The notes under the pieces: model-generated
Told to the model about the DNA's origin: nothing
Seen by the model: only the letters and a program-made list of their open reading frames with translations
Database searches by the model: none
DNA from: an uncultured bacterium
GTDB taxonomy: Bacteria > Patescibacteriota > Minisyncoccia > Phycocordibacterales > CAIRYW01
Assembly (NCBI GenBank): GCA_963766885.1
Contig: CAVYBO010000002.1
Coordinates: forward strand, 175,141 to 239,140
DNA length: 64,000 bases
Direction: 5' to 3'
Program-made: the position numbers and the translations under genes
Part shown: positions 1,464 through 60,300 of the stretch, piece by piece
Position numbering within the stretch: position 1 is the stretch's first letter
How the letters are laid out: the number at the start of each line of letters is the position of its first letter

Positions 1464-2749
1464 TTTAGAAATTCTTGCAAATTTGAATTAAAACCGCTTA
1501 CAGCATCCAAAACATCTGATGAGCCGCTTGTTACAGATTCTATCATTGTTTGAATTGCTGTATCCGTGTCCGCTTCGTCTGGATCAATCCATGTTTTGGA
1601 AATCAAAACTGATCGCCTGAAGGTTTCTGCTGATGCTGATGGCTCCACCGCAGAGAGCATATCATTTCTAACAGAAGGAATTCCGGACTCTGTGGAAAAA
1701 ACGGTCAAAAAGGCATTACCCACCAAAGATTGCGCTTGAGAAAACGCAGCGTTTTGATTTTTGGATGAAGCTAAAATACCAATACCGTAGACATTGGCAT
1801 AAGTGACAGAAGTGTTTGAATTGTCAGCTTGTGGAATCACAGCCACTCCAAAATTTAAGTTGGGATTTTCCGCTTGCAAATTTGCATACTCGCTTGCAAA
1901 GCCAATATATGTTGCGCTTTGGCCAAGCAGAAACATTTGATCGGAATTAGGCAGGGATCTGTTCCATGAATAATCCACTGAAGACGGGTTGGCAAACTCC
2001 GTATAAAAACTCAAAGCTGATTCAAAAGCATCCTCCTGGTTTCCTTCCACAACGCTAACTAAAGTGCCGCTTTGAAACTGGGTAATAGGATTACCAGCCT
2101 GAAAAGCAAGACAAGAAAGTATTGCAGAAGCATTTGGAACATTGGTATATTCTCCAAAAGAAACCGTACTTTGGCTGATGGTTTTATCAGAACTTATTTT
2201 TGAGAGTTTGGGCACCAAAGTCGTTAAGCCGCTCCATTTTGTTGGAGGCAGCGGCAAGCCTGCATTGGCAAAAATATCTTTGTTCCAATAAAGCACTAAA
2301 GGGTCAACAACAAACGGAATAGCCTGTATGCCGTTATCTGTTAGAAAAACATTTCCTACAGTTGCAAAGGTGTTTTCAAAAGTTCCTTGCGGAAAAACAG
2401 TATACGGAATTAAAGACAATAACTTGCTCTCTTTGTAGATATCATTTTGAGGCAAAATAACCATATCTGGCGCCTGCCCTTCAGCAACCGCATTAACAAG
2501 CTCGGAATCAAACTTGTCCAAGGGCACTTGTTGGTAAGATATATTCATGAGCGCAGGATTCGAGACTTGAAGTTTTGTAATTGTATCAGTAAAATAAGTT
2601 GCTGGTAAAACTCCCCAGATAATTATCGGAACGGATTGTGAATTGTTTGAATTTGTCGCGGTAAATCCGGCAAAGACCAAAACCCCTATCAAAAGAAAAA
2701 CTATAAACACTGCTAATATTATGTATTGTATAGTGCTGGTTTTTTGCAT
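1460..2749 (-). CDS. ABC transporter substrate-binding protein, family 1 (sugar-type), N-terminal membrane anchor
   Basis: N-terminal TM helix; motif VDPLVLYWNKDIFANAGLPLPPTKWSGL typical of SBP_bac_1. No permease or ATPase genes nearby. Confidence 0.55.
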   Translation of the reverse strand: MQKTSTIQYIILAVFIVFLLIGVLVFAGFTATNSNNSQSVPIIIWGVLPATYFTDTITKLQVSNPALMNISYQQVPLDKFDSELVNAVAEGQAPDMVILPQNDIYKESKLLSLIPYTVFPQGTFENTFATVGNVFLTDNGIQAIPFVVDPLVLYWNKDIFANAGLPLPPTKWSGLTTLVPKLSKISSDKTISQSTVSFGEYTNVPNASAILSCLAFQAGNPITQFQSGTLVSVVEGNQEDAFESALSFYTEFANPSSVDYSWNRSLPNSDQMFLLGQSATYIGFASEYANLQAENPNLNFGVAVIPQADNSNTSVTYANVYGIGILASSKNQNAAFSQAQSLVGNAFLTVFSTESGIPSVRNDMLSAVEPSASAETFRRSVLISKTWIDPDEADTDTAIQTMIESVTSGSSDVLDAVSGFNSNLQEFLK

Positions 2750-2815
2750 TAGTAATATTTTAAGATGAATACAAAAATATAGCTACTCATACATATCCAC
2801 TGCTTAGAACAAAAG

Positions 2816-3343
2816 CTAAGATTTTCTCAAAATCAATCCGTAATGATGATCTCCCGCATCAATTTTTTGGAAAACCGCAAGTCCAGCCTCTTCAAAAAGT
2901 TTTTTGGCATCCTCTTCTTTAAACAGGTGGTCTTTGTGCGGCCCGATTCCCGCAAAATTATCATTCCATTCAACAAAAAGTATTCTTCCTTTATTCTTAG
3001 TAATTCTTTTGGCTTCCTTGATTGCAGAATTTTTGTCTTCCAAAGAGAAAAAGGTGTTTGAAATAATTGTTAAATCTGCAATGTCATCCGCCAAGCTTGT
3101 GCCGCCGAGTTTTTCGATGTTTCCCGCTATAGGCCTGATGTTTTTGATATTTTGACTCTTGGCTTCGTTTTTTAATTTTGAAAGCAGGTCTTGATTTATG
3201 TCTATTGCATAAACAATTCCATCCACTCCAACCATAAGCGCCGCAGGAATTGAATAAAAGCCTGCGCCACTGCCAAGATCCGCAACCACAGCGGCTTTGC
3301 CCACCCCTGTCTGCAATAAATTTTTTTGAGGATTAGAAAACAT
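2816..3343 (-). CDS. class I SAM-dependent methyltransferase
   Basis: Motif I VADLGSGAGFYS and a downstream acidic loop (YAIDIN). Confidence 0.65.
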   Translation of the reverse strand: MFSNPQKNLLQTGVGKAAVVADLGSGAGFYSIPAALMVGVDGIVYAIDINQDLLSKLKNEAKSQNIKNIRPIAGNIEKLGGTSLADDIADLTIISNTFFSLEDKNSAIKEAKRITKNKGRILFVEWNDNFAGIGPHKDHLFKEEDAKKLFEEAGLAVFQKIDAGDHHYGLILRKS

Positions 3344-6993: not shown

Positions 6994-7413
6994 TTATTCA
7001 GAAGTTTCTACAAAACCATTTTTACCAATTAAAAATCTCATTTGATTAGTACTCCCTTTAGGACCAACGCCTGGAGGAAAATTCATTTCTAGATAATAAG
7101 TAGAATTATTTATGTTAGCTGTAAAACCAAATTTGTATAATTGATTCCATCCTTGACTCTCTAAAAAAGAAGTCGTACTAGCAACATTCACCTCTTTATC
7201 AGATACGCAATCGTATATCTCATTTGAAAAAGGAAAATACTCTAAGTTACCGCAATTCATTCCTATTGTTTTCATTTCATTAATCGTTTGCGAAAAATTG
7301 TCTTCTACTATCAAATATTCAACGATGTATATAAAGCAAAAAACTAAAACGATTCCGCCAATCAAAGATAAAAAGTTTTCTTGCTTCTTGCTCCGGCTTC
7401 CTATATTTTTCAT
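6994..7413 (-). CDS. hypothetical protein with N-terminal TM anchor
   Basis: ORF with hydrophobic N-terminus; no recognisable motif. Confidence 0.35.
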   Translation of the reverse strand: MKNIGSRSKKQENFLSLIGGIVLVFCFIYIVEYLIVEDNFSQTINEMKTIGMNCGNLEYFPFSNEIYDCVSDKEVNVASTTSFLESQGWNQLYKFGFTANINNSTYYLEMNFPPGVGPKGSTNQMRFLIGKNGFVETSE

Positions 7414-7447
7414 ATATTAATTATACTCTATATTTATAAAATAATTG

Positions 7448-7477
7448 TTGCATTTTAGCTTCTGATACGTATATAAT
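7448..7477 (+). promoter_or_regulatory. sigma70-like promoter (TTGCAT-18 bp-TATAAT) for the downstream small RNA candidate
   Basis: -35 TTGCAT at 7448..7453 and -10 TATAAT at 7472..7477 with an 18-bp spacer. Predicted TSS about 7483, coinciding with the 5' closing stem of the structured element. Confidence 0.4.
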
Positions 7478-7482
7478 AAATG

Positions 7483-7570
7483 TATGCCTGTGGGCGCAAG
7501 CCCCGTTCAGCTAAGGAATTCCTAAGCCGAAGGCAGGCATAACAAAGATACCGCCTCTGGCGGTGTTTTT
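7483..7570 (+). ncRNA. candidate structured small RNA (~88 nt) with intrinsic terminator
   Basis: 8-bp closing stem tatgcctg(7483..7490)/caggcata(7534..7541) enclosing a GNRA-capped hairpin (gggc-GCAA-gccc) and a second hairpin around the aggaattcct palindrome. Followed by terminator accgcc-tctg-ggcggt + TTTTT (7550..7570). No + strand CDS follows. Confidence 0.35.
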
Positions 7571-7571
7571 G

Positions 7572-8039
7572 TTACTCGTCTTCTATTCCTTCGCTGAACA
7601 ATTTTTGATTTCCATTCTTCCTTTTTGAATAAAGCATCACACTCCAAAAAGTAATATTTCCGTCGCCAACTCTTCTTAACACTATTCTAACTTTTACTCT
7701 CTTTTCTCCAATTATTGCCACAAGACCCCAGTATTCAACTTCTTTCATTGGCGTAGCTCCATCTCTTGCTGACTTTTTACCGATTGGAGTGAGTAATTTT
7801 CTATATTCTTGAATTGTTGAAGATTTTCTTATAAGTTCCAAACCCAAAGGCAAAAGGCTGAATTTGAAAAGCTGTTCTTTTTTATCTCTCTCCCTCCTTG
7901 CTGAAAATTGCAGATGATGAAATCCATCGGAGTTTAAAATTACAGTAGTTTTAAAGTAAGGGTTGTAGATCTCCCTCTGAGCAGTAAAGAGTGCCTTCGC
8001 TTTTTCTTTTTGAATATCAAAATGGTTTCCGATCTCCAT
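7572..8039 (-). CDS. hypothetical protein
   Basis: 155-aa basic protein with no recognisable motif. Confidence 0.4.
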   Translation of the reverse strand: MEIGNHFDIQKEKAKALFTAQREIYNPYFKTTVILNSDGFHHLQFSARRERDKKEQLFKFSLLPLGLELIRKSSTIQEYRKLLTPIGKKSARDGATPMKEVEYWGLVAIIGEKRVKVRIVLRRVGDGNITFWSVMLYSKRKNGNQKLFSEGIEDE

Positions 8040-8146
8040 TACTGGTAATAATATATCTTTCTAAAGAAAATGGCTAGATTTTTAATTAAACTTGAACAAA
8101 TGTACAAATAATGTATACTGTCCGAACTTATTATTAGCAGTAAGGA

Positions 8147-10096: not shown

Positions 10097-10394
10097 TAGG
10101 GAACTATATACAATACTACCCTAATAAATAAACCCTACAACAATCACCATAATGACTACCCAAATAACAAGACCTATAATGATATTATTTTCAGTTATCA
10201 CTTCCTTTTTTGACTTTGGAAACAGCCAATGGATAAATTTAACAAAGTAATTTATAAGTATCATAATTATTTCTTCTTAGCTTTTAATTTTCTCCCTCTC
10301 CTTGTATCTTTTTTTGAGATAGCAATAATACCTAACGCCTCGTTAAAGGTTTCTTTTATGGGGTCGTGCTTTTTTATTATAGGTCTACCTCTTT

Positions 10395-11387
10395 TCATGC
10401 GGTTAAAGTCTTATAAGACATTTTACCACTTTTGGAGATACCTTGCACAGCACCCGCGAACAAGTCTTGTAAGTCTGCGTTGCGATTATTGAAACGATAG
10501 ACAAATTCATCTACATATCGCTGTAAGTGTTTCTTGCTCATAGAGTGATATGTTCCATGATAGCCACGCTTAAACAAAGCCCAAAAACTTTCTGCGCTGT
10601 TGGAGTGTATATCACCTCGTACATACTCATTCTTGCCATGTCTTACTACGCCATGATTGAAATGCTTTTTGAGCTTCATGTAGGAAAGAAAATCATCAGT
10701 GTAGACATTACTTCCTTTCTCCACATTTTCAAGGATATGTTTCTCAATCGTGCTGACTTTTACATCAGGAACAACTTTTGCCCTTACTTCGCCACCACGC
10801 TGAACAAGACCCATAACCGCAGTTTTCGTTTGTGTGCTTCTACCTTGAACATGTTTTGTTCTCTTGTTCCAATGCTTATTCTTTTCCTTTCCGCCGATGT
10901 ATGTTTCGTCAGTTTCTACCGAACCAAATAGTTTCCCTTTGTTTTGCTTCATAGCTTCTCTTATGCGGTGGTCAATGAACCAAGCTGTCTTTTGAGTGCA
11001 ACCAACTTGTTCTGCAAGCTCAATAGAGGATATACCTTTTTTGCGAGTAGAAAGTAAATATATAGCGATAAACCATTTTTGCATGGAAATTTTGCTCTCA
11101 CCAAATAATGTTCCAGTTTTAATTGTGAAGTCCCTCTTGCATTTATCACAGCGAAATCTTTTATGGTCTGCAAAGCGCATAATCCTATTGTGTCCGCAGT
11201 GAGGACAATACTCTCCATCTTTGAAGCGCATAGACTCAAAGTAATCACGACACACTTTCTCGTCTTTGAAATATCCCATGAACTCTGCTAAATTTTTGAA
11301 GTCTTTTATCATGCAATAAGTATATTCTATATGTTTAGGGTAGTCAAGTCTAATAATTAATATAAAATAGATACTTAAAAAAGTCAA
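10395..11387 (-). CDS. IS1595-family (ISXO2-like) DDE transposase with N-terminal zinc ribbon
   Basis: CPHCGHNRIMRF…FRCDKCKRDF zinc ribbon followed by an ISXO2-like transposase core (…KHWNKRTKHVQGRS…YTDDFLSY…HSNSAESFWALFKRGYHGTYHSMSKKHLQRYVDEF). Confidence 0.8.
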   Translation of the reverse strand: MTFLSIYFILIIRLDYPKHIEYTYCMIKDFKNLAEFMGYFKDEKVCRDYFESMRFKDGEYCPHCGHNRIMRFADHKRFRCDKCKRDFTIKTGTLFGESKISMQKWFIAIYLLSTRKKGISSIELAEQVGCTQKTAWFIDHRIREAMKQNKGKLFGSVETDETYIGGKEKNKHWNKRTKHVQGRSTQTKTAVMGLVQRGGEVRAKVVPDVKVSTIEKHILENVEKGSNVYTDDFLSYMKLKKHFNHGVVRHGKNEYVRGDIHSNSAESFWALFKRGYHGTYHSMSKKHLQRYVDEFVYRFNNRNADLQDLFAGAVQGISKSGKMSYKTLTA

Positions 11388-11476
11388 TTAATAATCCACA
11401 TTAATACCTAGCATGATACTTGACATATTAAGTAGAATGAATTACAATGACATGGTAATTTAGAAAGTCAATGTAC

Positions 11477-11558
11477 TGCCCCGAGTGGGACTTGAACCCG
11501 CATTCCGCCAGGAACTCGTTTTCAAAACGAGCGCGTCTACCAGTTTCGCCATCGGGGC
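11477..11558 (-). tRNA. tRNA-Ser (anticodon TGA), long variable arm
   Basis: Hand-folded cloverleaf: acceptor GCCCCGA/TCGGGGC, anticodon stem CTCGT/ACGAG with loop TTTGAAA, 12-nt variable arm. The T-stem has one C·A mismatch. Confidence 0.7.
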
Positions 11559-11690
11559 ATTACGCTGACTTCCTAGAATTAGTTGAGTGCTTTGTTCTGG
11601 TATCGTGTTATCTATTCAGTTCCATTATGGTCATCGACCATACCTCTGATTAGGTTCGATACCAGAGCAAAATATTCAACTCAGTAAAAA

Positions 11691-12086
11691 TTAACCAACC
11701 CCTTGCTCTGTTGAGTTAGGGGTTTCAGTTTTTGAACGTAAACGATATGTACCACGCTTTCCTTCTACACGCTCGAGTTTCTTTGCGTTATCAACCAAAT
11801 AAGTTGTGCGCAGAGAAATTGTTTCTTTGCTAGGGGAAAAATTGTATTTTGACGCTATGTGTTTAAAAATAGCTTCAGTATTAAACATCTGTAAAGGGTT
11901 TTCACCAAAGAGCTTCAAAATAGCTTCTTTGTAATCAAACCCATCAGGTTCAGGACTTATTTCTTGAAATTGAACAGATGCCAACTCATTCAGTTCGGTC
12001 TCTCGTTCTTTTATTTCTGCTCTGAGGATATTTATTCTATCAACGAGATCGAAAGCACTTCTAATTTTTGGGCGGTTATTTGTCAT
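11691..12086 (-). CDS. hypothetical protein (cargo of the IR-bounded element)
   Basis: 131-aa ORF with coiled-coil-like N-terminus, followed by a hairpin and T-run. Confidence 0.4.
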   Translation of the reverse strand: MTNNRPKIRSAFDLVDRINILRAEIKERETELNELASVQFQEISPEPDGFDYKEAILKLFGENPLQMFNTEAIFKHIASKYNFSPSKETISLRTTYLVDNAKKLERVEGKRGTYRLRSKTETPNSTEQGVG

Positions 12087-12272
12087 GCAATAAGAATAGC
12101 AGAAATAAAGTAGGAATGCAATGTAAAAGTAGGAGAAATAAGATAGTATAATACATTTTTTCTCACCATTCTTGTAGTAAACTTAATAAAAACCCTTATT
12201 TTAAGCTGTTTTTGACACAATCATATTTTTGTATCTTGATGTGGATATAGTTTAAAGTACTGAGAAATCTTG

Positions 12273-12281
12273 CTACAATTA
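12273..12281 (+). promoter_or_regulatory. extended -10 promoter (TGcTACAAT) upstream of the small ORF 12310..12462
   Basis: TGnTACAAT about 30 bp upstream of an ATG preceded by AAGGAG. Confidence 0.35.
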
Positions 12282-12309
12282 AGAAAATTAAAAGCTAAGG
12301 AGAAATAAT

Positions 12310-12462
12310 ATGTTATCAATAATTTTGATTTTGGTTGTTGTAAATATGATACTTGGATTTTTGTGGGTAAGAGGAATAAATCGGGGTCTTCACGTCATTG
12401 GAGATGCTCTTGCGGAGATAAAAGAAAAGACCGACAAATTAGGAACGTTTAATTATAAATAG
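12310..12462 (+). CDS. small single-TM membrane protein (50 aa), not in the ORF track
   Basis: Strong SD AAGGAG 7 nt upstream of the ATG. MLSIILILVVVNMILGFLWV hydrophobic helix followed by a charged tail. Confidence 0.4.
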   Translation: MLSIILILVVVNMILGFLWVRGINRGLHVIGDALAEIKEKTDKLGTFNYK

Positions 12463-12465
12463 TTT

Positions 12466-12861
12466 TTAGGGTAACTTTGTATATAGTTCCCTTAAATTAT
12501 TATAGAACCCTGTTTCTTGTTCTTTAAGTAAATCTGCAGGAGATGGTGTCTGTATTGATTGACTTTGTACAGGTTGAACTGGTTGAGCAATAACTGGTGT
12601 TGGCACAGAAACAGGAATATTCGGAACAGGCTGTGGAATTGCAACATTTACAACAGTTTGAGTATTTACCGTTGCACTTTGAAGAGGGTTGTTCTTTGCT
12701 TCTTTTGCTGATGTCGTCGCAGAGAGCGTGGTTTGCACTGTAGTCGTTGCTAATATATTAGTTGTTGATGTTGAAACAACAGATTGAGAATGAAAAGCTC
12801 CAGTAAAAGCCATAAATGCCGCTACAATTCCTATACTCAAACTATGAAAGAAATTAAACAT
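12466..12861 (-). CDS. N-terminal portion of a secreted Thr/Pro/Gln-rich protein, apparently truncated by the inserted element
   Basis: Signal or TM peptide followed by low-complexity sequence. The stop codon lies inside the right inverted repeat. Confidence 0.4.
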   Translation of the reverse strand: MFNFFHSLSIGIVAAFMAFTGAFHSQSVVSTSTTNILATTTVQTTLSATTSAKEAKNNPLQSATVNTQTVVNVAIPQPVPNIPVSVPTPVIAQPVQPVQSQSIQTPSPADLLKEQETGFYNNLRELYTKLP

Positions 12862-33487: not shown

Positions 33488-34159
33488 CTATGGAAGTCTT
33501 CTTAGTCTCGGCCAGACAGTCTTTCCTTGCGTGGAATCGTAGAAGTACGTTCTTCCCCCATCGAGGGAGTAGGTAATTCCAGATACCTCAACAAAGTACG
33601 GACCCTGTACAAGAGGTCGATGATCCCTGCTTGAGAAGCTGAAAAAGAAATCTCTGATGATTCCTTCTTGTCCAGCCAATAATTCAAAGTGGTAAGGAAT
33701 GCTCCCGATTCTGAAGAACATATGTGGAGGCACAACGAATCCAGAACTGTTTAAAACAAGGGTCTTAGTAATGTCGTTACCGACACCATTCACCACCCTG
33801 AAGGTGAAGATTGGTGTTTCTGAACGCATGTCCCCTAGAATAACGTTGTCTGATCTCGCCAACACAGTGACGTTGAAGCTTCCACTAATTTTGGAGGAAT
33901 CTGTCCCTCCGAAATGATCTTTCTGACTTGCTGGTGGGCCTGTGGCATTGAATGTGAAGTTCGGCGGAGTATCAGTCAATTCCACCGGAGATGTCGCGAA
34001 CTTAAAAAAGCCGGCGATCAAGAACGACGCAACGACAAGCAAAGCGGTTTGAATAATTTTCAAGTAAATTCCTTTCTTTGCAGGACAACCACTACCATAG
34101 CAGTTGGTCACAGCAAGAAGATCTAAAATTTTTAGAGCTTTTTGCTGTGACCAAAGCAA
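33488..34159 (-). CDS. hypothetical membrane-anchored exported protein
   Basis: TM helix near the N-terminus; no recognisable motif. Confidence 0.35.
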   Translation of the reverse strand: MLWSQQKALKILDLLAVTNCYGSGCPAKKGIYLKIIQTALLVVASFLIAGFFKFATSPVELTDTPPNFTFNATGPPASQKDHFGGTDSSKISGSFNVTVLARSDNVILGDMRSETPIFTFRVVNGVGNDITKTLVLNSSGFVVPPHMFFRIGSIPYHFELLAGQEGIIRDFFFSFSSRDHRPLVQGPYFVEVSGITYSLDGGRTYFYDSTQGKTVWPRLRRLP

Positions 34160-45596: not shown

Positions 45597-46715
45597 AATG
45601 GCGGTGTGTCGGAGTTAAGTACCTGTGAGTCCAATCCCTATAAGCATCTTCTGACATCTTTTTGGAAATTAATTTGAAGGATCAGAGTCTACATCAATAT
45701 TTTAAAAATGAGACAAATGAAACATTAATTATCAGTGTGAGAAAAACGCCTCCGTATAAATTTTTTCTTCAGAGATTTTAAAAGATCGCAAATCACGCCA
45801 AATATCTCGAGTAAAAGATATAGAGCCGCAAATCAGAAATTCAGTATCTGAATCAATCGGAATACTTTCAATAATTTTTTGTCCGGTAATTCTACCTTCA
45901 AAAATTTTCTCTGAAACCTTTTCTCTTGTTATAAAATAATTCACCTTAAAATTTTTATACTGATTTTGAAGTTCATCAAAAGTTTTTCTAAAAATTATAT
46001 CCTGAAGCGTTTTGTTGCTATAAAAAAGAGTCATTTTTCTTAATGGGTTATTCAAAAGAGCTGAAATAATCATGCTCCTGAAAGGAGCGATACCAATGCC
46101 GGCAGCAACCATAACCAAATGGCTTTTTTCAGATTCGCTGTAGAAAAATCCATATGGCAAAGAAGCTATGATTCTATCTCCTGTTTTTTTCGCTACAAGA
46201 CTATTTGAAAACTCACCAATAGCTTTGACTGTAATACTAATTAATCTTTCCTTTGGAGAGCTGGATATGCTGTATGCTTTGCCCTCTGGCGTGTTGGTCT
46301 CAGGAAAATAGACAGTTATGAATTGCCCAGGAACATAGTGCGGGCAAACTTTATTCCAATTAATAAGTCTTAACGTGGAAACCCCCTTTGCTTCCATTAT
46401 ATTGCTTTGCACCATGTATGTTTCTTTAATTTCTCTTTTCATCGCTGTTTTCGTAATCTTCAATTGCTTCTCGTAAAGCCTCATGCCCCAAGACCGAGCA
46501 GTGATATTTCCTGTCTGGAAGGCCACCAAGGCGATCAATTATTGATTCCGGGGTCAGCCGCTTTGCCCGATCAACAGTCATGCCACTGTTTTCAGTTGCC
46601 ATAACTGACATCATTGATGTCGAAGCGATTGCTGAGGCACAACCAAATGTTCGCCATTTGCATTCGCTGATTTTTTTTGTTTTCTTATCTACTCTAATCC
46701 AAACAATCATCATGT
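45597..46715. repeat. ~1.1 kb segmental duplication, copy 1 (FNR-like gene plus 3' part of iscU); near-identical to 56293..57418
   Basis: Identical 268-aa ORFs and identical flanking nucleotide sequence; I saw one mismatch (gaaggatcag vs gaagggtcag). Confidence 0.85.
45732..46538 (-). CDS. FNR-like FAD/NAD(P)-binding oxidoreductase (PyrK-like, no Fe-S Cys cluster), copy 1
   Basis: GKAYSISSSP (RxYS-type FAD site) and VMVAAGIGIAPFRSM (GxGxxP NAD site). Confidence 0.6.
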   Translation of the reverse strand: MIALVAFQTGNITARSWGMRLYEKQLKITKTAMKREIKETYMVQSNIMEAKGVSTLRLINWNKVCPHYVPGQFITVYFPETNTPEGKAYSISSSPKERLISITVKAIGEFSNSLVAKKTGDRIIASLPYGFFYSESEKSHLVMVAAGIGIAPFRSMIISALLNNPLRKMTLFYSNKTLQDIIFRKTFDELQNQYKNFKVNYFITREKVSEKIFEGRITGQKIIESIPIDSDTEFLICGSISFTRDIWRDLRSFKISEEKIYTEAFFSH

Positions 46716-56185: not shown

Positions 56186-56434
56186 AGTTAATTGATTACT
56201 TGATTATAATATAACACAAATAAAAATGAAAACCATATTCCGAACATGAAATCTAAGGTCTTGCTTATCGGGCATCAGGGTCTTCCGATACTAAATACTC
56301 TTGGCGGTGTGTCGGAGTTAAGTACCTGTGAGTCCAATCCCTATAAGCATCTTCTGACATCTTTTTGGAAATTAATTTGAAGGGTCAGAGTCTACATCAA
56401 TATTTTAAAAATGAGACAAATGAAACATTAATTA

Positions 56435-57241
56435 TCAGTGTGAGAAAAACGCCTCCGTATAAATTTTTTCTTCAGAGATTTTAAAAGATCGCAAATCACG
56501 CCAAATATCTCGAGTAAAAGATATAGAGCCGCAAATCAGAAATTCAGTATCTGAATCAATCGGAATACTTTCAATAATTTTTTGTCCGGTAATTCTACCT
56601 TCAAAAATTTTCTCTGAAACCTTTTCTCTTGTTATAAAATAATTCACCTTAAAATTTTTATACTGATTTTGAAGTTCATCAAAAGTTTTTCTAAAAATTA
56701 TATCCTGAAGCGTTTTGTTGCTATAAAAAAGAGTCATTTTTCTTAATGGGTTATTCAAAAGAGCTGAAATAATCATGCTCCTGAAAGGAGCGATACCAAT
56801 GCCGGCAGCAACCATAACCAAATGGCTTTTTTCAGATTCGCTGTAGAAAAATCCATATGGCAAAGAAGCTATGATTCTATCTCCTGTTTTTTTCGCTACA
56901 AGACTATTTGAAAACTCACCAATAGCTTTGACTGTAATACTAATTAATCTTTCCTTTGGAGAGCTGGATATGCTGTATGCTTTGCCCTCTGGCGTGTTGG
57001 TCTCAGGAAAATAGACAGTTATGAATTGCCCAGGAACATAGTGCGGGCAAACTTTATTCCAATTAATAAGTCTTAACGTGGAAACCCCCTTTGCTTCCAT
57101 TATATTGCTTTGCACCATGTATGTTTCTTTAATTTCTCTTTTCATCGCTGTTTTCGTAATCTTCAATTGCTTCTCGTAAAGCCTCATGCCCCAAGACCGA
57201 GCAGTGATATTTCCTGTCTGGAAGGCCACCAAGGCGATCAA
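56435..57241 (-). CDS. FNR-like FAD/NAD(P)-binding oxidoreductase, copy 2 (identical protein), directly upstream of pyrD
   Basis: Identical 268-aa translation to 45732..46538. Confidence 0.6.
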   Translation of the reverse strand: MIALVAFQTGNITARSWGMRLYEKQLKITKTAMKREIKETYMVQSNIMEAKGVSTLRLINWNKVCPHYVPGQFITVYFPETNTPEGKAYSISSSPKERLISITVKAIGEFSNSLVAKKTGDRIIASLPYGFFYSESEKSHLVMVAAGIGIAPFRSMIISALLNNPLRKMTLFYSNKTLQDIIFRKTFDELQNQYKNFKVNYFITREKVSEKIFEGRITGQKIIESIPIDSDTEFLICGSISFTRDIWRDLRSFKISEEKIYTEAFFSH

Positions 57242-57733: not shown

Positions 57734-58551
57734 AAGAAAATAGTGAGACTCCCAAAACTCTTCGGGCCAGAGAGCTTGGGATCTCCCGCAGCACTCTCTA
57801 CTACAAACCAAAGAAACCTGACAAAGATTGGGAACTAAAATGTCAGATTGAAGAAGTTCTCAGAGAGCATCCTTCATATGGTTCTCCACGCATCGCCCTT
57901 GCCCTCAAAAGAAACCACAAACCGATTGAACGAGTGATGAAACTTTTCGGTATCAAGGCATATCGCAGACGTGGTAGAAGATGGAAAAAATCGAAGAATA
58001 TCAAAGTTATTTACCCAAATCTTCTTTTGACTAATTATCCCCAATATGAAAATCATATCTGGGTGACAGACTTCACCCGCATACCCTTTGAAAACAAAAC
58101 CATCTATGTGGCTACAGTCGAAGATTTGTTCACCAGAAAAATTGTTGGGTTGTCAGTATACACCACCCATGCTGTTCAATTGGTTTTAGCATCATTCATG
58201 TCGGCTCTTCAAAATAATCCCAGACCAAAAATTTTCCACTCTGACAACGGCAGTGAATACAACTCGGAGGTGTTCATTCAGGCGCTGCAGACCGTCGGGG
58301 TATTGATTTCTCGTTCTGCTCCAGGTTGTCCGTGGGAGAATGGGTACCAGGAATCTTTCTACGACAAATTCAAAATTGATCTTGGGGATTCTTCCCGATT
58401 CAAAACATTGGGAGAGCTGGTGTTCGCTATTTACCAAACAATTTACATTTACAACAACACCAGGATTCATACCGCCCTCAAAATGTCACCCGTGCAATTT
58501 GCACTTTCGTCGGCTCGAGAATACAATTCAGCTAACAAGGTTAGTGTCTGA
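57730..58551 (+). CDS. IS3-family transposase OrfB (rve integrase core, DDE)
   Basis: HIWVTDFT (D), HSDNGSEY (D), PWENGYQESF (E) integrase-core motifs. Confidence 0.85.
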   Translation: MKENSETPKTLRARELGISRSTLYYKPKKPDKDWELKCQIEEVLREHPSYGSPRIALALKRNHKPIERVMKLFGIKAYRRRGRRWKKSKNIKVIYPNLLLTNYPQYENHIWVTDFTRIPFENKTIYVATVEDLFTRKIVGLSVYTTHAVQLVLASFMSALQNNPRPKIFHSDNGSEYNSEVFIQALQTVGVLISRSAPGCPWENGYQESFYDKFKIDLGDSSRFKTLGELVFAIYQTIYIYNNTRIHTALKMSPVQFALSSAREYNSANKVSV

Positions 58552-58616
58552 TGAAATGGGGGAAGTACAGTGAATCAAAGGAATCCTTCCAGAGATGTCT
58601 AAAGCGTGAGTGAGTT

Positions 58617-59690
58617 ATGAATGCAAATCCGCAGCTTGCTGTATCAGTACAGACAGGTCTGGTCCGCTGGTTTGACCGCCGCCTCGATAAGAGGTTCGGC
58701 TTCATTACCTTGGACTGGAAAAACCCAAAGGAGGAAGACATTTTCTTCCACCTCAACGACAACGCCATCGTCTACGGAGACGCTGGTCAACCATACTTCC
58801 GGACTGACCCGGCGAACAAACCGGCTAGGCTCCCTGAAGAGGGTGACCTGGTGGTGTTTGAAACTCAGCATCCTCCACGTGGTCCGAAGGCCAAGCCTTG
58901 GGCTTACCTTCATGACTACGAGGCGATCGTGCGCGGTATTTCTCCGCAGCCGCTGTACCGACTGGTCGGGCACTACCATATTTCAGACGGCGGCAAGGAG
59001 AAAAAAGGTCCTCGGATTATCTTCTGGGGCGGCCTGTCTCTCGACTCGCTGTATCTCCGGTATCCGGACTGTCGAGCGGATCTCGCAGCCATCAAGTGGT
59101 GCTTCCGGTTGCCCTGCTCGAAAGTCGAAGGTATCCATCTGGAAGTTCTGCCCGCGGAAGCGGACAAGTACGACGACTCGGCGTGGATGCCTTACGAAAT
59201 TCCGGAAGATGCGGACGACGATGTCGTTCTCATTACAGAACCGAAGCTCAAGATCACCGCTGAGTACGGCCACGGTGGTCACGAAACCGAGTACGTCATC
59301 CGACTCTGGGAGGAAGAACCGGGACACCCCGGCCATTACCTCAAGTGTCTCGACTTCCCGAAGGAGTTTTCCGACGAGTTCGAGATCGTGGCCAGAGCCG
59401 AGCCGAAGCGGTGGGCAGTATATCCCCGCGGTGTTCGGATCGAGGTGTACTTCACGGATCAGCTCCGGACCGAAGAGCCGGTTCCCTACGGGACACCGGG
59501 TTTCGTTAGCTTCTCTTCCAATCATTTCGAATGCAAGCGTCTCATTGAGACGACTCTGCAGCGGCTGAAAACGAAGCTCGCCAAGCTTCGCAAGGAGAAG
59601 ATCCTGGACATCTGGGCCGACGATTTAACTTCGCCCCTCATCAAGGAGCGCAAGCTTACGTTCCATGTGAACGAGGTCGTCGTGGAGTAA
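58617..59690 (+). CDS. cold-shock-domain (CSD) N-terminal fusion protein with a ~280-aa C-terminal domain of unknown function; G+C-rich foreign gene
   Basis: N-terminus GLVRWFDRRLDKRFGFITLDW…DIFFHLND matches the CSD RNP1/RNP2-like pattern. The rest is unrecognised. Abrupt rise in G+C and GC3 relative to the host. Confidence 0.45.
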   Translation: MNANPQLAVSVQTGLVRWFDRRLDKRFGFITLDWKNPKEEDIFFHLNDNAIVYGDAGQPYFRTDPANKPARLPEEGDLVVFETQHPPRGPKAKPWAYLHDYEAIVRGISPQPLYRLVGHYHISDGGKEKKGPRIIFWGGLSLDSLYLRYPDCRADLAAIKWCFRLPCSKVEGIHLEVLPAEADKYDDSAWMPYEIPEDADDDVVLITEPKLKITAEYGHGGHETEYVIRLWEEEPGHPGHYLKCLDFPKEFSDEFEIVARAEPKRWAVYPRGVRIEVYFTDQLRTEEPVPYGTPGFVSFSSNHFECKRLIETTLQRLKTKLAKLRKEKILDIWADDLTSPLIKERKLTFHVNEVVVE

Positions 59691-59766
59691 CAGGTTCACA
59701 CAATATATTAAAGGTTTGTCCCCGCCCTGAAATTCGGAGAGCCTAGAGGAAGCAGAGCCTCAAAAC

Positions 59767-59802
59767 AAAGCCGTCGCCCACAAGCGCGGCTTTTGTCTTT
59801 TT
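59767..59802 (+). terminator. rho-independent terminator after the CSD-fusion gene
   Basis: aaagccgtcgcccacaagcgcggcttt hairpin followed by TTTTGTCTTTTT. Confidence 0.6.
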
Positions 59803-59838
59803 ATATTTTATTGTAATGTCTTACCATCTGTACTTTAT

Positions 59839-60300
59839 ATGATCCAAAACAGATTACGCATCCTGTGTCTATACAACGACCAGGAACCAAGCTATCTGGA
59901 AGCGGATCCAGAATTCGAACTTCGAGATCACGAAGTAACAATCTTCGAAACGTATGTGGAAGCGAAGACAGCAATTCAGGATAGCACAAGAGGAATACCT
60001 CCTTTCGATGTTGTCCTTGCAGATGTGTCAGTGCCTGGAGGAAAATTCGAAGACGGTTTTGACGACTTCCCTTTCTCTCCAGTATTGCTTCAACCCTATC
60101 TGAGCCAAGTACTTGTGCGAGGTTTAGGCGTCTTTGCTCCGGAAGATTTCGAAACAACCTTTGAGTCCTCAGATGGATTTGCTGTGCTAGTTGCTTCGAA
60201 AGAATGTCGAACACCATTCGGCACTCGAGACTGGAGGAAACTTTTGGAACTTGTTCTCAAGGCTTCGGATGAAGCTGACCAATTCAGAGTCCGTGACTAA
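59839..60300 (+). CDS. stand-alone receiver (REC)-like domain protein with atypical acidic pocket (NDQE in place of DD); G+C-rich
   Basis: RILCLYNDQE…YVEAKTAI…FDVVLADVSVPGG…FAVLVASKE follows the CheY-like beta-alpha layout with a conserved phospho-acceptor-position Asp. Confidence 0.35.
   Translation: MIQNRLRILCLYNDQEPSYLEADPEFELRDHEVTIFETYVEAKTAIQDSTRGIPPFDVVLADVSVPGGKFEDGFDDFPFSPVLLQPYLSQVLVRGLGVFAPEDFETTFESSDGFAVLVASKECRTPFGTRDWRKLLELVLKASDEADQFRVRD

Follow-up and report, generated by a model that had tools for sequence, protein, structure and literature searches.

In the known type III toxin-antitoxin (TA) systems, a non-coding RNA directly binds and neutralises a protein (PMC5772629, PMC8860590). 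Two further systems in which a non-repetitive small RNA (sRNA) accompanies a protein effector have been classed as type III, AvcID (PMC10511110) and, according to the accessible part of its description, AbiF (bioRxiv 10.1101/2025.04.15.648962). Here, we describe an sRNA gene and the neighbouring gene for a 155-aa protein in 64,000 nucleotides of DNA from an uncultured bacterium of the Patescibacteriota (contig CAVYBO010000002.1, positions 175,141 to 239,140 of the forward strand). This whole stretch will be called the window, and all coordinates refer to it. The RNA represents a new family of structured sRNAs, whose members are linked to proteins of an uncharacterised family, and no prior description of this RNA or of the RNA-protein pair was found in literature searches.

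The pair shares several features with the type III systems ToxIN, CptIN and TenpIN. It is a two-gene module of a non-coding RNA and a protein, a terminator separates the two genes, the RNA is retained where the protein has been lost, and in a minority of loci the order is RNA, terminator, protein. On the other hand, the RNA is a single 57-nt three-way junction, whereas the RNAs of those systems are tandem repeats processed by the toxin. The protein lies outside the ToxN/AbiQ family (no Pfam, NCBIfam or PADLOC match), and the two genes usually have promoters of their own and are convergent, as they are in the window. By analogy, the pair most plausibly works like a type III TA system, without the features that define the known families. 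As far as the available sources describe AvcID and AbiF, a single non-repetitive sRNA with a protein effector is common to them and to the present pair. Their effectors, however, are a deoxycytidylate deaminase and an Abi_2-type protein instead of an LPD3-like one, and their RNAs have no sequence or Rfam relationship to the sRNA described here.

The nearest detectable relative of the protein is PF18798 LPD3. In the accessible part of the paper that defines it (PMC5512222), LPD3 is an uncharacterised domain of the polyvalent proteins of phages and conjugative elements, some of which also contain predicted PBECR RNase domains; that part of the paper does not mention an RNA partner for LPD3. Unlike the LPD3 of giant injected proteins, the present protein is stand-alone, chromosomal and found mainly in Patescibacteria. 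Covarying structured RNAs for which a constant neighbouring protein family offers the sole hint of function are known from the DUF3800-associated motifs and HEARO. The present sRNA is likewise a covarying structured RNA beside a fixed protein family, but no model of Rfam 15, where such motifs should be, matches it.

The sRNA gene

The sRNA gene of the window is made up of the following parts.

7448..7453, plus strand: −35 hexamer TTGCAT of the sRNA promoter, from the sequence and from TTGACx/TTGCxx at the equivalent position in ~75 related loci
7472..7477, plus strand: −10 hexamer TATAAT of the sRNA promoter, 6 nt ahead of the first P1 base
7484..7540, plus strand: sRNA core, a 57-nt three-way junction, from fold, covariation and covariance model
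7484-7490 with 7534-7540, plus strand: P1, ATGCCTG/CAGGCAT, 7 conserved pairs
7491, plus strand: U, the base joining P1 and P2
7492-7495 with 7500-7503, plus strand: P2, GGGC/GCCC, with the GNRA loop GCAA at 7496-7499
7504-7505, plus strand: J2/3, CG
7506-7531, plus strand: P3 (TTCAGCT-A-AGG-AATT-CCT-A-AGCC-GAA), pairs 7506-7512/7525-7531 plus 7514-7516/7521-7523
7532-7533, plus strand: J3/1, GG
7541..7573, plus strand: 3' part of the sRNA, with the conserved AACAAAGAU tract, the terminator hairpin and the U-tract
7550-7564, plus strand: terminator hairpin ACCGCC-TCT-GGCGGT, followed by GTTTTTGTT; U-tract at 7565-7573

An earlier note, made from the letters of this DNA, had described much of this layout. 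The three-way junction with its GCAA hairpin, the second hairpin built on a 10-bp palindrome (AGGAATTCCT at 7514-7523, inside P3) and the intrinsic terminator have all been recovered where the note placed them. P3 also contains a conserved A-A mismatch (7513/7524) and a variable loop (7517-7520), and AACAAAGAT lies between the junction core and the terminator hairpin. The closing helix does stand at the predicted start of the transcript, but only seven of the eight base pairs that had been counted are conserved, and the eighth (U7483-A7541) is possible in the window sequence only.

The promoter TTGCAT-18-TATAAT is likewise present, and its 18-nt spacer predicts an sRNA start at ~7484. It had been called near-consensus, but the −35 hexamer agrees with TTGACA at just 3/6 positions and, as a result, the promoter is not listed by a consensus scan. 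Its reality is supported by the relatives, since in ~75 related loci a TTGAC/TTGC hexamer, a 17/18-nt spacer and (TG)nTAnAAT are kept at an equal distance ahead of P1, with the start 6-7 nt further on. In the relatives' terminators the hairpin sequence varies and the hairpin itself is kept between an A-tract and a T-tract (~75 loci). With a promoter and an intrinsic terminator of its own, both conserved in position, the RNA has, at the level of signals, what is expected of an independent sRNA gene.

The 90-nt transcript folds with −46.9 kcal/mol (z = −6.3; 0/200 shuffles equally stable), and the 57-nt core by itself has a folding z of −3.8. The reverse complement of the transcript also folds (z = −5.2), so the strand is not decided by energy alone. 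A covariance model run on the window finds the sRNA core with 90.3 bits and E = 4e-25. The locus is very probably a real sRNA gene.

Conservation and covariation of the RNA

The RNA motif is conserved, with compensatory base changes, in ~200 loci. The three-helix structure has been tested on an alignment of 76 sequences with 500 shuffles. In this alignment, counted on 75 distinct sequences, 97.0% of cells are paired over 21 base pairs and compensatory changes are seen in 9/21 pairs, values that are matched by 0/500 shuffles; sliding the pairing partners by 1-3 columns lowers the paired cells to 21-53%. P1 has 100% of its cells paired and three covarying positions, and the distant copies widen its covariation further (e.g. 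GUGCGGCGG/CCGCCGCAC and GACUUCUUG/CAAGGAGUC). The second base of the P2 loop varies freely between GCAA, GAAA, GUAA and GGAA, as expected for a GNRA tetraloop. The distal P3 of distant copies tolerates deletions as well as insertions of up to ~30 nt. The junction, P2 and the base of P3 make up the invariant part of the RNA, U-GGGC-GNRA-GCCC-CG-UUCAG...CUGAA-G.

The strand of the RNA has been assigned from the alignment, where 29 G-U cells are found against 8 A-C cells on the plus strand. This excess and the promoter and terminator, placed on the plus strand in every relative, support that strand as the RNA strand. An RNA of the minus strand has been considered, since in the window P3 pairs slightly better there, with G-U in place of A-C. 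It was rejected because the relatives mostly have A-U at this place, the G-U pairs elsewhere favour the plus strand, and the promoter and the terminator lie on the plus strand.

The RNA does not belong to a described family. At the gathering score, Rfam 15 finds six tRNAs only in the whole window and nothing at the sRNA, and a permissive scan of 7300-7700 gives chance matches only. The best of these, isrK, reaches 16.8 bits against a gathering score of 50 and spans only P3 and the terminator. The variant RNAs described below likewise have no Rfam match. The RNA has also been compared by eye with the signal recognition particle (SRP) RNA, 5S rRNA, tRNA-like folds, the hammerhead, the L11-binding rRNA domain and the 11-nt tetraloop receptor. 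The one loose likeness was that of CCUAAG/CUAAGG in P3 to the last of these, and no membership is claimed.

The sRNA is also not a repeat element. Its sequence is single-copy within the window, no repeat family covers it, and Tandem Repeats Finder reports two trivial AT-rich repeats only, both outside the RNA.

The earlier note had stated that the unit contains no open reading frame (ORF). Two are in fact present, a 41-codon TTG ORF at 7522-7647 on the minus strand and, on the strand of the RNA, an ATG ORF of 13 codons, but neither is conserved. The second of these raises the question of whether the transcript, read as a leaderless mRNA with its ATG at 7484, encodes a 13-residue peptide (MPVGASPVQLRNS and a stop codon). 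The predicted transcript does begin with ATG or GTG, and in the window 13 codons can be read without interruption. However, the variable base of the GNRA loop freely alters the fifth codon, the changes in P1 are compensated on the opposite arm instead of being synonymous, and 1-nt insertions in the P3 loop of ~17 sequences shift the frame before the stop, which leaves the peptide with hardly any credibility.

The same holds for a riboswitch or other cis-regulatory leader, in which the junction would be an aptamer and the terminator its expression platform. A compact three-way junction with a terminator directly after it has the expected look, but in the window, as in most loci, no same-strand gene lies downstream of it. 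What adjoins the terminator is the stop codon of a convergent gene, and gene orientation contradicts this explanation in >90% of loci. Moreover, an alternative pairing to P1 and the terminator is not evident, and no Rfam riboswitch matches. A leader function is thus extremely improbable.

Linkage to the protein gene

The 155-aa gene had been described as divergent from the sRNA. The two genes are actually convergent (tail-to-tail), and the stop codon of the protein gene (7572-7574) overlaps the U-tract of the sRNA terminator. This terminator is bidirectional, as a terminator scan calls it on the minus strand, and it is common to the sRNA and the protein gene.

The suspected link between the two has been followed in 80 genomic loci obtained via homologs of the 155-aa protein and searched with the 57-nt RNA core. 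The RNA adjoins the protein gene in 80/80 of them, normally ~40 nt past the stop codon and almost always on the opposite strand; in four, the RNA is cut by the contig end. Across these loci, the RNA is 87-100% identical and the protein 49-83%. The linkage is essentially obligate from the protein's side, and on this sequence evidence the RNA is likely to be the specific partner of the protein. The earlier note had proposed a functional, self-contained sRNA, perhaps linked to the adjacent protein, and the computational checks that it suggested (known RNA and repeat families, conservation with compensatory changes, linkage) all turned out to favour this proposal.

The RNA has also been used as the anchor, in a metagenome scan to which one IMG/VR contig was added. 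The scan required an exact 21-nt match and gave at least 121 loci of the following kinds.

At least 83 loci: protein present, convergent
At least 6 loci: protein present, RNA upstream on the same strand
At least 7 loci: too near the contig end
At least 25 loci: no family protein (tblastn, confirmed by the family hidden Markov model, HMM)

Among the matches listed, 25/114 RNA-anchored loci with enough flank thus have no family protein by HMM. Remains of the protein gene can still be seen at several orphan RNAs, where the last protein codons (...DE and the stop) stand beside the terminator (L100, L119, L125, L135, L146, L156, L180), and the protein ORF is split in at least four loci. A protein gene without RNA was not seen among the loci examined. 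One candidate for a hidden protein, a 136-aa ORF beside the orphan RNA of L111/L193, is similar by eye (HFMSVFP motif); it has been set aside, as it is undetected by the family HMM or by Pfam.

Three orphan RNAs (L103, L166 and L198) are followed directly, and on their own strand, by other nuclease or toxin genes. In L103 (799-1470), the terminator of the RNA has been lost, and a HicA-toxin gene (Pfam E = 1.8e-5, just below the Pfam cutoff) is preceded by a 120-aa ORF without a Pfam match. In L198, a gene for a NYN-domain protein lies downstream of the RNA (Pfam E = 1.6e-15), and the downstream ORF of L166 resembles it by eye.

The convergent layout with the common bidirectional terminator is found in >90% of loci. 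The layout resembles the convergent type I systems of Bacillus, bsrG/SR4 and txpA/RatA, in which an sRNA gene and a protein gene lie tail-to-tail with overlapping 3' ends; the toxins there are small hydrophobic peptides, and their RNAs work through base pairing. The sRNA could, by this likeness, be a cis-antisense regulator whose 3' end pairs with the complementary end of the mRNA and controls its stability or translation. Conservation of the AACAAAG tract 3' of the junction core can be counted in its favour. The best explanation of this tract is that the convergent mRNA requires a U-tract, its complement, at the common terminator. In the window, RNA-mRNA complementarity is limited to this terminator (~30 nt), and the part of the RNA that is conserved and covaries, the three-way junction, is located outside the overlapping region.

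The RNA lies upstream on the same strand, without an overlap, in L054, L058, L069, L085, L117, L121, L123, L183 and L155 (among the matches listed); the first three are protein-anchored loci, with the RNA terminator between the genes. Such tandem loci indicate that the antisense overlap is dispensable, and orphan RNAs persist without any protein gene. For the sRNA and the 5' region of the mRNA (first 60 nt), the duplex energy is −16.9 kcal/mol when the two are cognate, −16.8 kcal/mol when they are not and −17.3 kcal/mol when the mRNA is shuffled, so there is no cognate-specific pairing to this region. The protein, at 155 aa, basic and soluble, also differs from the type I toxins (<60 aa, hydrophobic). 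Taken together, antisense control seems improbable, though less so than the peptide or the leader.

A second line of evidence on partnership comes from loci with divergent proteins. In L012 (same contig as L090 and L110), two cassettes lie head-to-tail (1681-2300 and 2453-3047), and the second has a paralogous 159-aa protein with its own RNA variant, which has the same helices with a GUCA loop, a UA junction and a short P3. A similar double cassette is found in L086 (945-2369), where each protein is followed by its own RNA variant. The family member P0255 is 25% identical to the window protein and belongs to a subfamily of Patescibacteria that is ~70-80% identical internally. In three contexts (MreBC, PurP and MnmA), this subfamily has a convergent RNA gene in the 150-200-nt gap past the stop codon. 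This RNA has a promoter, a three-way junction, AACAAAG and a terminator, with a different sequence, a 9-bp P1 and a P2 with a UUCG loop. The design therefore appears to be a property of the whole family, with an RNA of its own for each subfamily.

Genomic context of the cassette

Clustering of all ORFs of the 80 loci gives no family in common except the LPD3-like protein. The 147 immediate neighbour genes fall into 135 Pfam families that are mostly housekeeping (EF-G/LepA, SecA, ribonucleotide reductase, PheRS, enolase), and four of the 147 are large serine recombinases. In the window, the neighbours of the cassette are an S1-domain protein and a small membrane protein. The distribution is patchy, and multi-copy and tandem paralogous cassettes occur. 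The labels of the host records include Holophagales (8.4-Mb contig), Blastocatellia (2.9 Mb), Alphaproteobacteria and Thermoanaerobaculum, which indicates that the cassette is not confined to candidate phyla. The sRNA and the LPD3-like protein thus appear, from their sequence contexts, to form an autonomous two-gene cassette that moves between genomic contexts.

The sole match in a viral collection is the IMG/VR contig L082 (488-555; same sequence as L199), which has the RNA core and its promoter, without the terminator and without an LPD3-like gene.

The LPD3-like protein family

The protein gene of the window has the following parts.

7572..8039, minus strand: 155-aa basic protein, a stand-alone LPD3-like domain, from homologs, sub-threshold LPD3 matches and BFVD folds
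8048..8076, minus strand: predicted promoter of the protein gene, TAGCCA-17-TATTAT, with the −10 ending 8 nt before the ATG

This distance between the −10 and the ATG suggests that the protein mRNA is probably leaderless. There is no visible Shine-Dalgarno sequence ahead of the gene, and a −10-like box (TATGAT, TATAAT or TATTAT) is found 7-10 nt before the ATG in ~60 loci (8040-8053 in the window).

The protein has >1000 homologs, mostly in metagenome-assembled genomes of Patescibacteria. In a profile search of 1.84 billion representative proteins, the family comprises 827 clusters at 50% identity. Throughout the family, G39, H42 and R51 are invariant, and P27, Q77, G127, F131 and S133 are near-invariant. 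Searches of the window protein with single sequences and two profiles gave nothing significant in Pfam, NCBIfam, PHROGs, PADLOC or the PDB sequences. AlphaFold2 run on 57 homologs gives a confident alpha+beta globular model (pLDDT 86.5) with an N-terminal helix, a small hairpin, two helices and a four-stranded sheet. For this model, Foldseek finds no informative match in the PDB.

The relationship to LPD3 has been identified in two ways. Among 74 diverse family members, 24 have sub-threshold matches to PF18798 LPD3 that cover the full 114-position model. The best E-value is 2.6e-5, and individually scanned members reach 15-18 bits against a gathering score of 27 bits. One of the 74 matches PBECR4, and the window protein itself has no match to PF18798. 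Foldseek against BFVD returns annotated LPD3 proteins as its top five matches (E 3.5e-3 to 4.9e-2, probability 0.85-1.0, query TM-score 0.34-0.49). The protein is thus, by the fold of the model and a weak sequence signal, probably distantly related to LPD3. The model may also bear a weak fold resemblance to RNases of the RelE/colicin type, which belong with CdiA-CT and BrnT to the BECR-fold toxins (RelE, colicin D/E5).

Proposed mechanism

Based on these observations, the following mechanism is proposed. A sigma-70-type promoter of its own would start an sRNA of ~90 nt at ~7484. The sRNA would fold into a 7-bp P1, a 4-bp P2 with a GNRA tetraloop and a P3 with the conserved A-A mismatch, and its transcription would end at the intrinsic terminator that also ends the convergent protein gene. 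The RNA would then bind its cognate protein via the invariant core of junction, P2 and proximal P3. Less securely than the binding itself, this may hold inactive a potentially harmful, probably RNA-targeting protein. The module would then be type III-like toxin-antitoxin or abortive-infection-style, with one structured RNA in place of the repeat array.

Neutralisation is suggested by several observations. The protein has never been seen alone and the RNA is often alone; the cassette is mobile, patchily distributed and in some cases duplicated; the protein is similar to domains of conflict systems; and cognate-specific pairing to the mRNA 5' region is lacking. That the RNA acts as the antitoxin of the LPD3-like protein is accordingly put forward as a tentative reading, and one with a substantial chance of being wrong.

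Several points weigh against an antitoxin role. The domain to which the protein is related has no known function in the accessible part of its defining paper (PMC5512222). The cassette lies among housekeeping genes and not in recognisable defence islands, and the PADLOC, phage and plasmid collections have no match to it by protein or DNA. The exact 21-mer scan finds intact RNAs only, so that the asymmetry of loss is biased. Finally, each protein subfamily is ~70-80% identical across candidate phyla, which is unusually high for a toxin and would also fit a beneficial ribonucleoprotein (RNP).

Such a non-toxic RNP, in which the RNA would be the cofactor, scaffold, substrate or regulator of a beneficial LPD3-like protein, for example in RNA processing or replication-coupled control, has been weighed on the same evidence. 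Both partners are highly conserved, the cassette is chromosomal and surrounded by housekeeping genes, and defence-system and mobile-element matches are absent, all of which would be expected of it. A possible physiological control of the sRNA, described in the next paragraph, can be added to these points. On the other hand, a beneficial RNP does not readily account for the patchy distribution, the varying context, the multi-copy and tandem paralogous cassettes, or the repeated deletion or breakage of the protein gene while the RNA is retained, and the protein is related to a domain of phage and conjugative-element conflict proteins, as the available part of PMC5512222 describes them. On balance, this alternative is regarded as rather unlikely.

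The control in question would involve DnaA. A DnaA-box 9-mer (TTATNCACA or its complement) abuts the −35 of the sRNA promoter in 63/169 distinct upstream regions, counted with at most 1 mismatch in either orientation at −62..−44 relative to the RNA 5' end. Perfect matches make up 27 of the 63, and the rest of the upstream 300 nt has 1-5 matches per 10-nt bin. The box is single, not an oriC-type cluster. It is seen, for example, in L030, L035, L037, L038, L046, L054, L058, L064 and L076, and is absent from the window (7422-7440). Its position suggests that DnaA may control the sRNA in many lineages.

If the antitoxin role and the DnaA box are taken together, the cassette could be a new class of RNA-protein conflict or control module, in which an LPD3-like effector is checked by a non-repetitive sRNA whose promoter is often wired to DnaA. 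This wider proposal is more speculative than the antitoxin role itself.

Other features of the window

Several features of the window lie apart from the cassette. The minus strand has a gene for an IS1595-family transposase at 10395-11387 (DDE_Tnp_IS1595, E = 6e-44; a zinc ribbon is also present), near a tRNA-Ser at 11476-11559. Nested inverted repeats bracket the two (10098-12492): an outer pair at 10098-10130/12460-12492 (85%) and an inner pair at 10266-10293/12282-12309 (96%). A 300-nt direct repeat of 100% identity is located at 45599-45898 and 56302-56601, 10,703 nt apart, and is flanked by shorter similar segments (families D2, D5 and D11). The G+C content is 0.50 at 58001-60000 against ~0.38 in the rest of the window, with no rRNA or other Rfam match there. 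At 34104-34154, two 25-nt arms separated by 1 nt form a nearly perfect inverted repeat (92% complementarity); the sRNA covariance model has weak, chance-level matches nearby.

Significance

The sRNA would add a well-supported family of structured RNAs that has hundreds of members, covaries clearly and is absent from Rfam, and it comes from candidate-phyla bacteria whose RNA biology is almost unexplored. For an unannotated protein family of 827 clusters, which reaches to the LPD3 of phage-injected polyvalent proteins, it provides a testable partner and a hypothesis. The cassette is small (~650 bp), and the module is widespread in Patescibacteria and also found in Acidobacteriota and Proteobacteria. 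A DnaA box at the sRNA promoter in over one third of loci points to a possible regulatory link, of a kind that is rare for such modules. If the RNA is indeed an antitoxin, type III-like systems would gain a new protein fold, a one-junction RNA architecture and a convergent gene order with a common terminator. If the wider module exists as proposed, the DnaA wiring would couple release of the protein to the replication status of the cell or to phage interference with replication, and the pair would offer a first way into the function of the LPD3 domain that phage polyvalent proteins contain.

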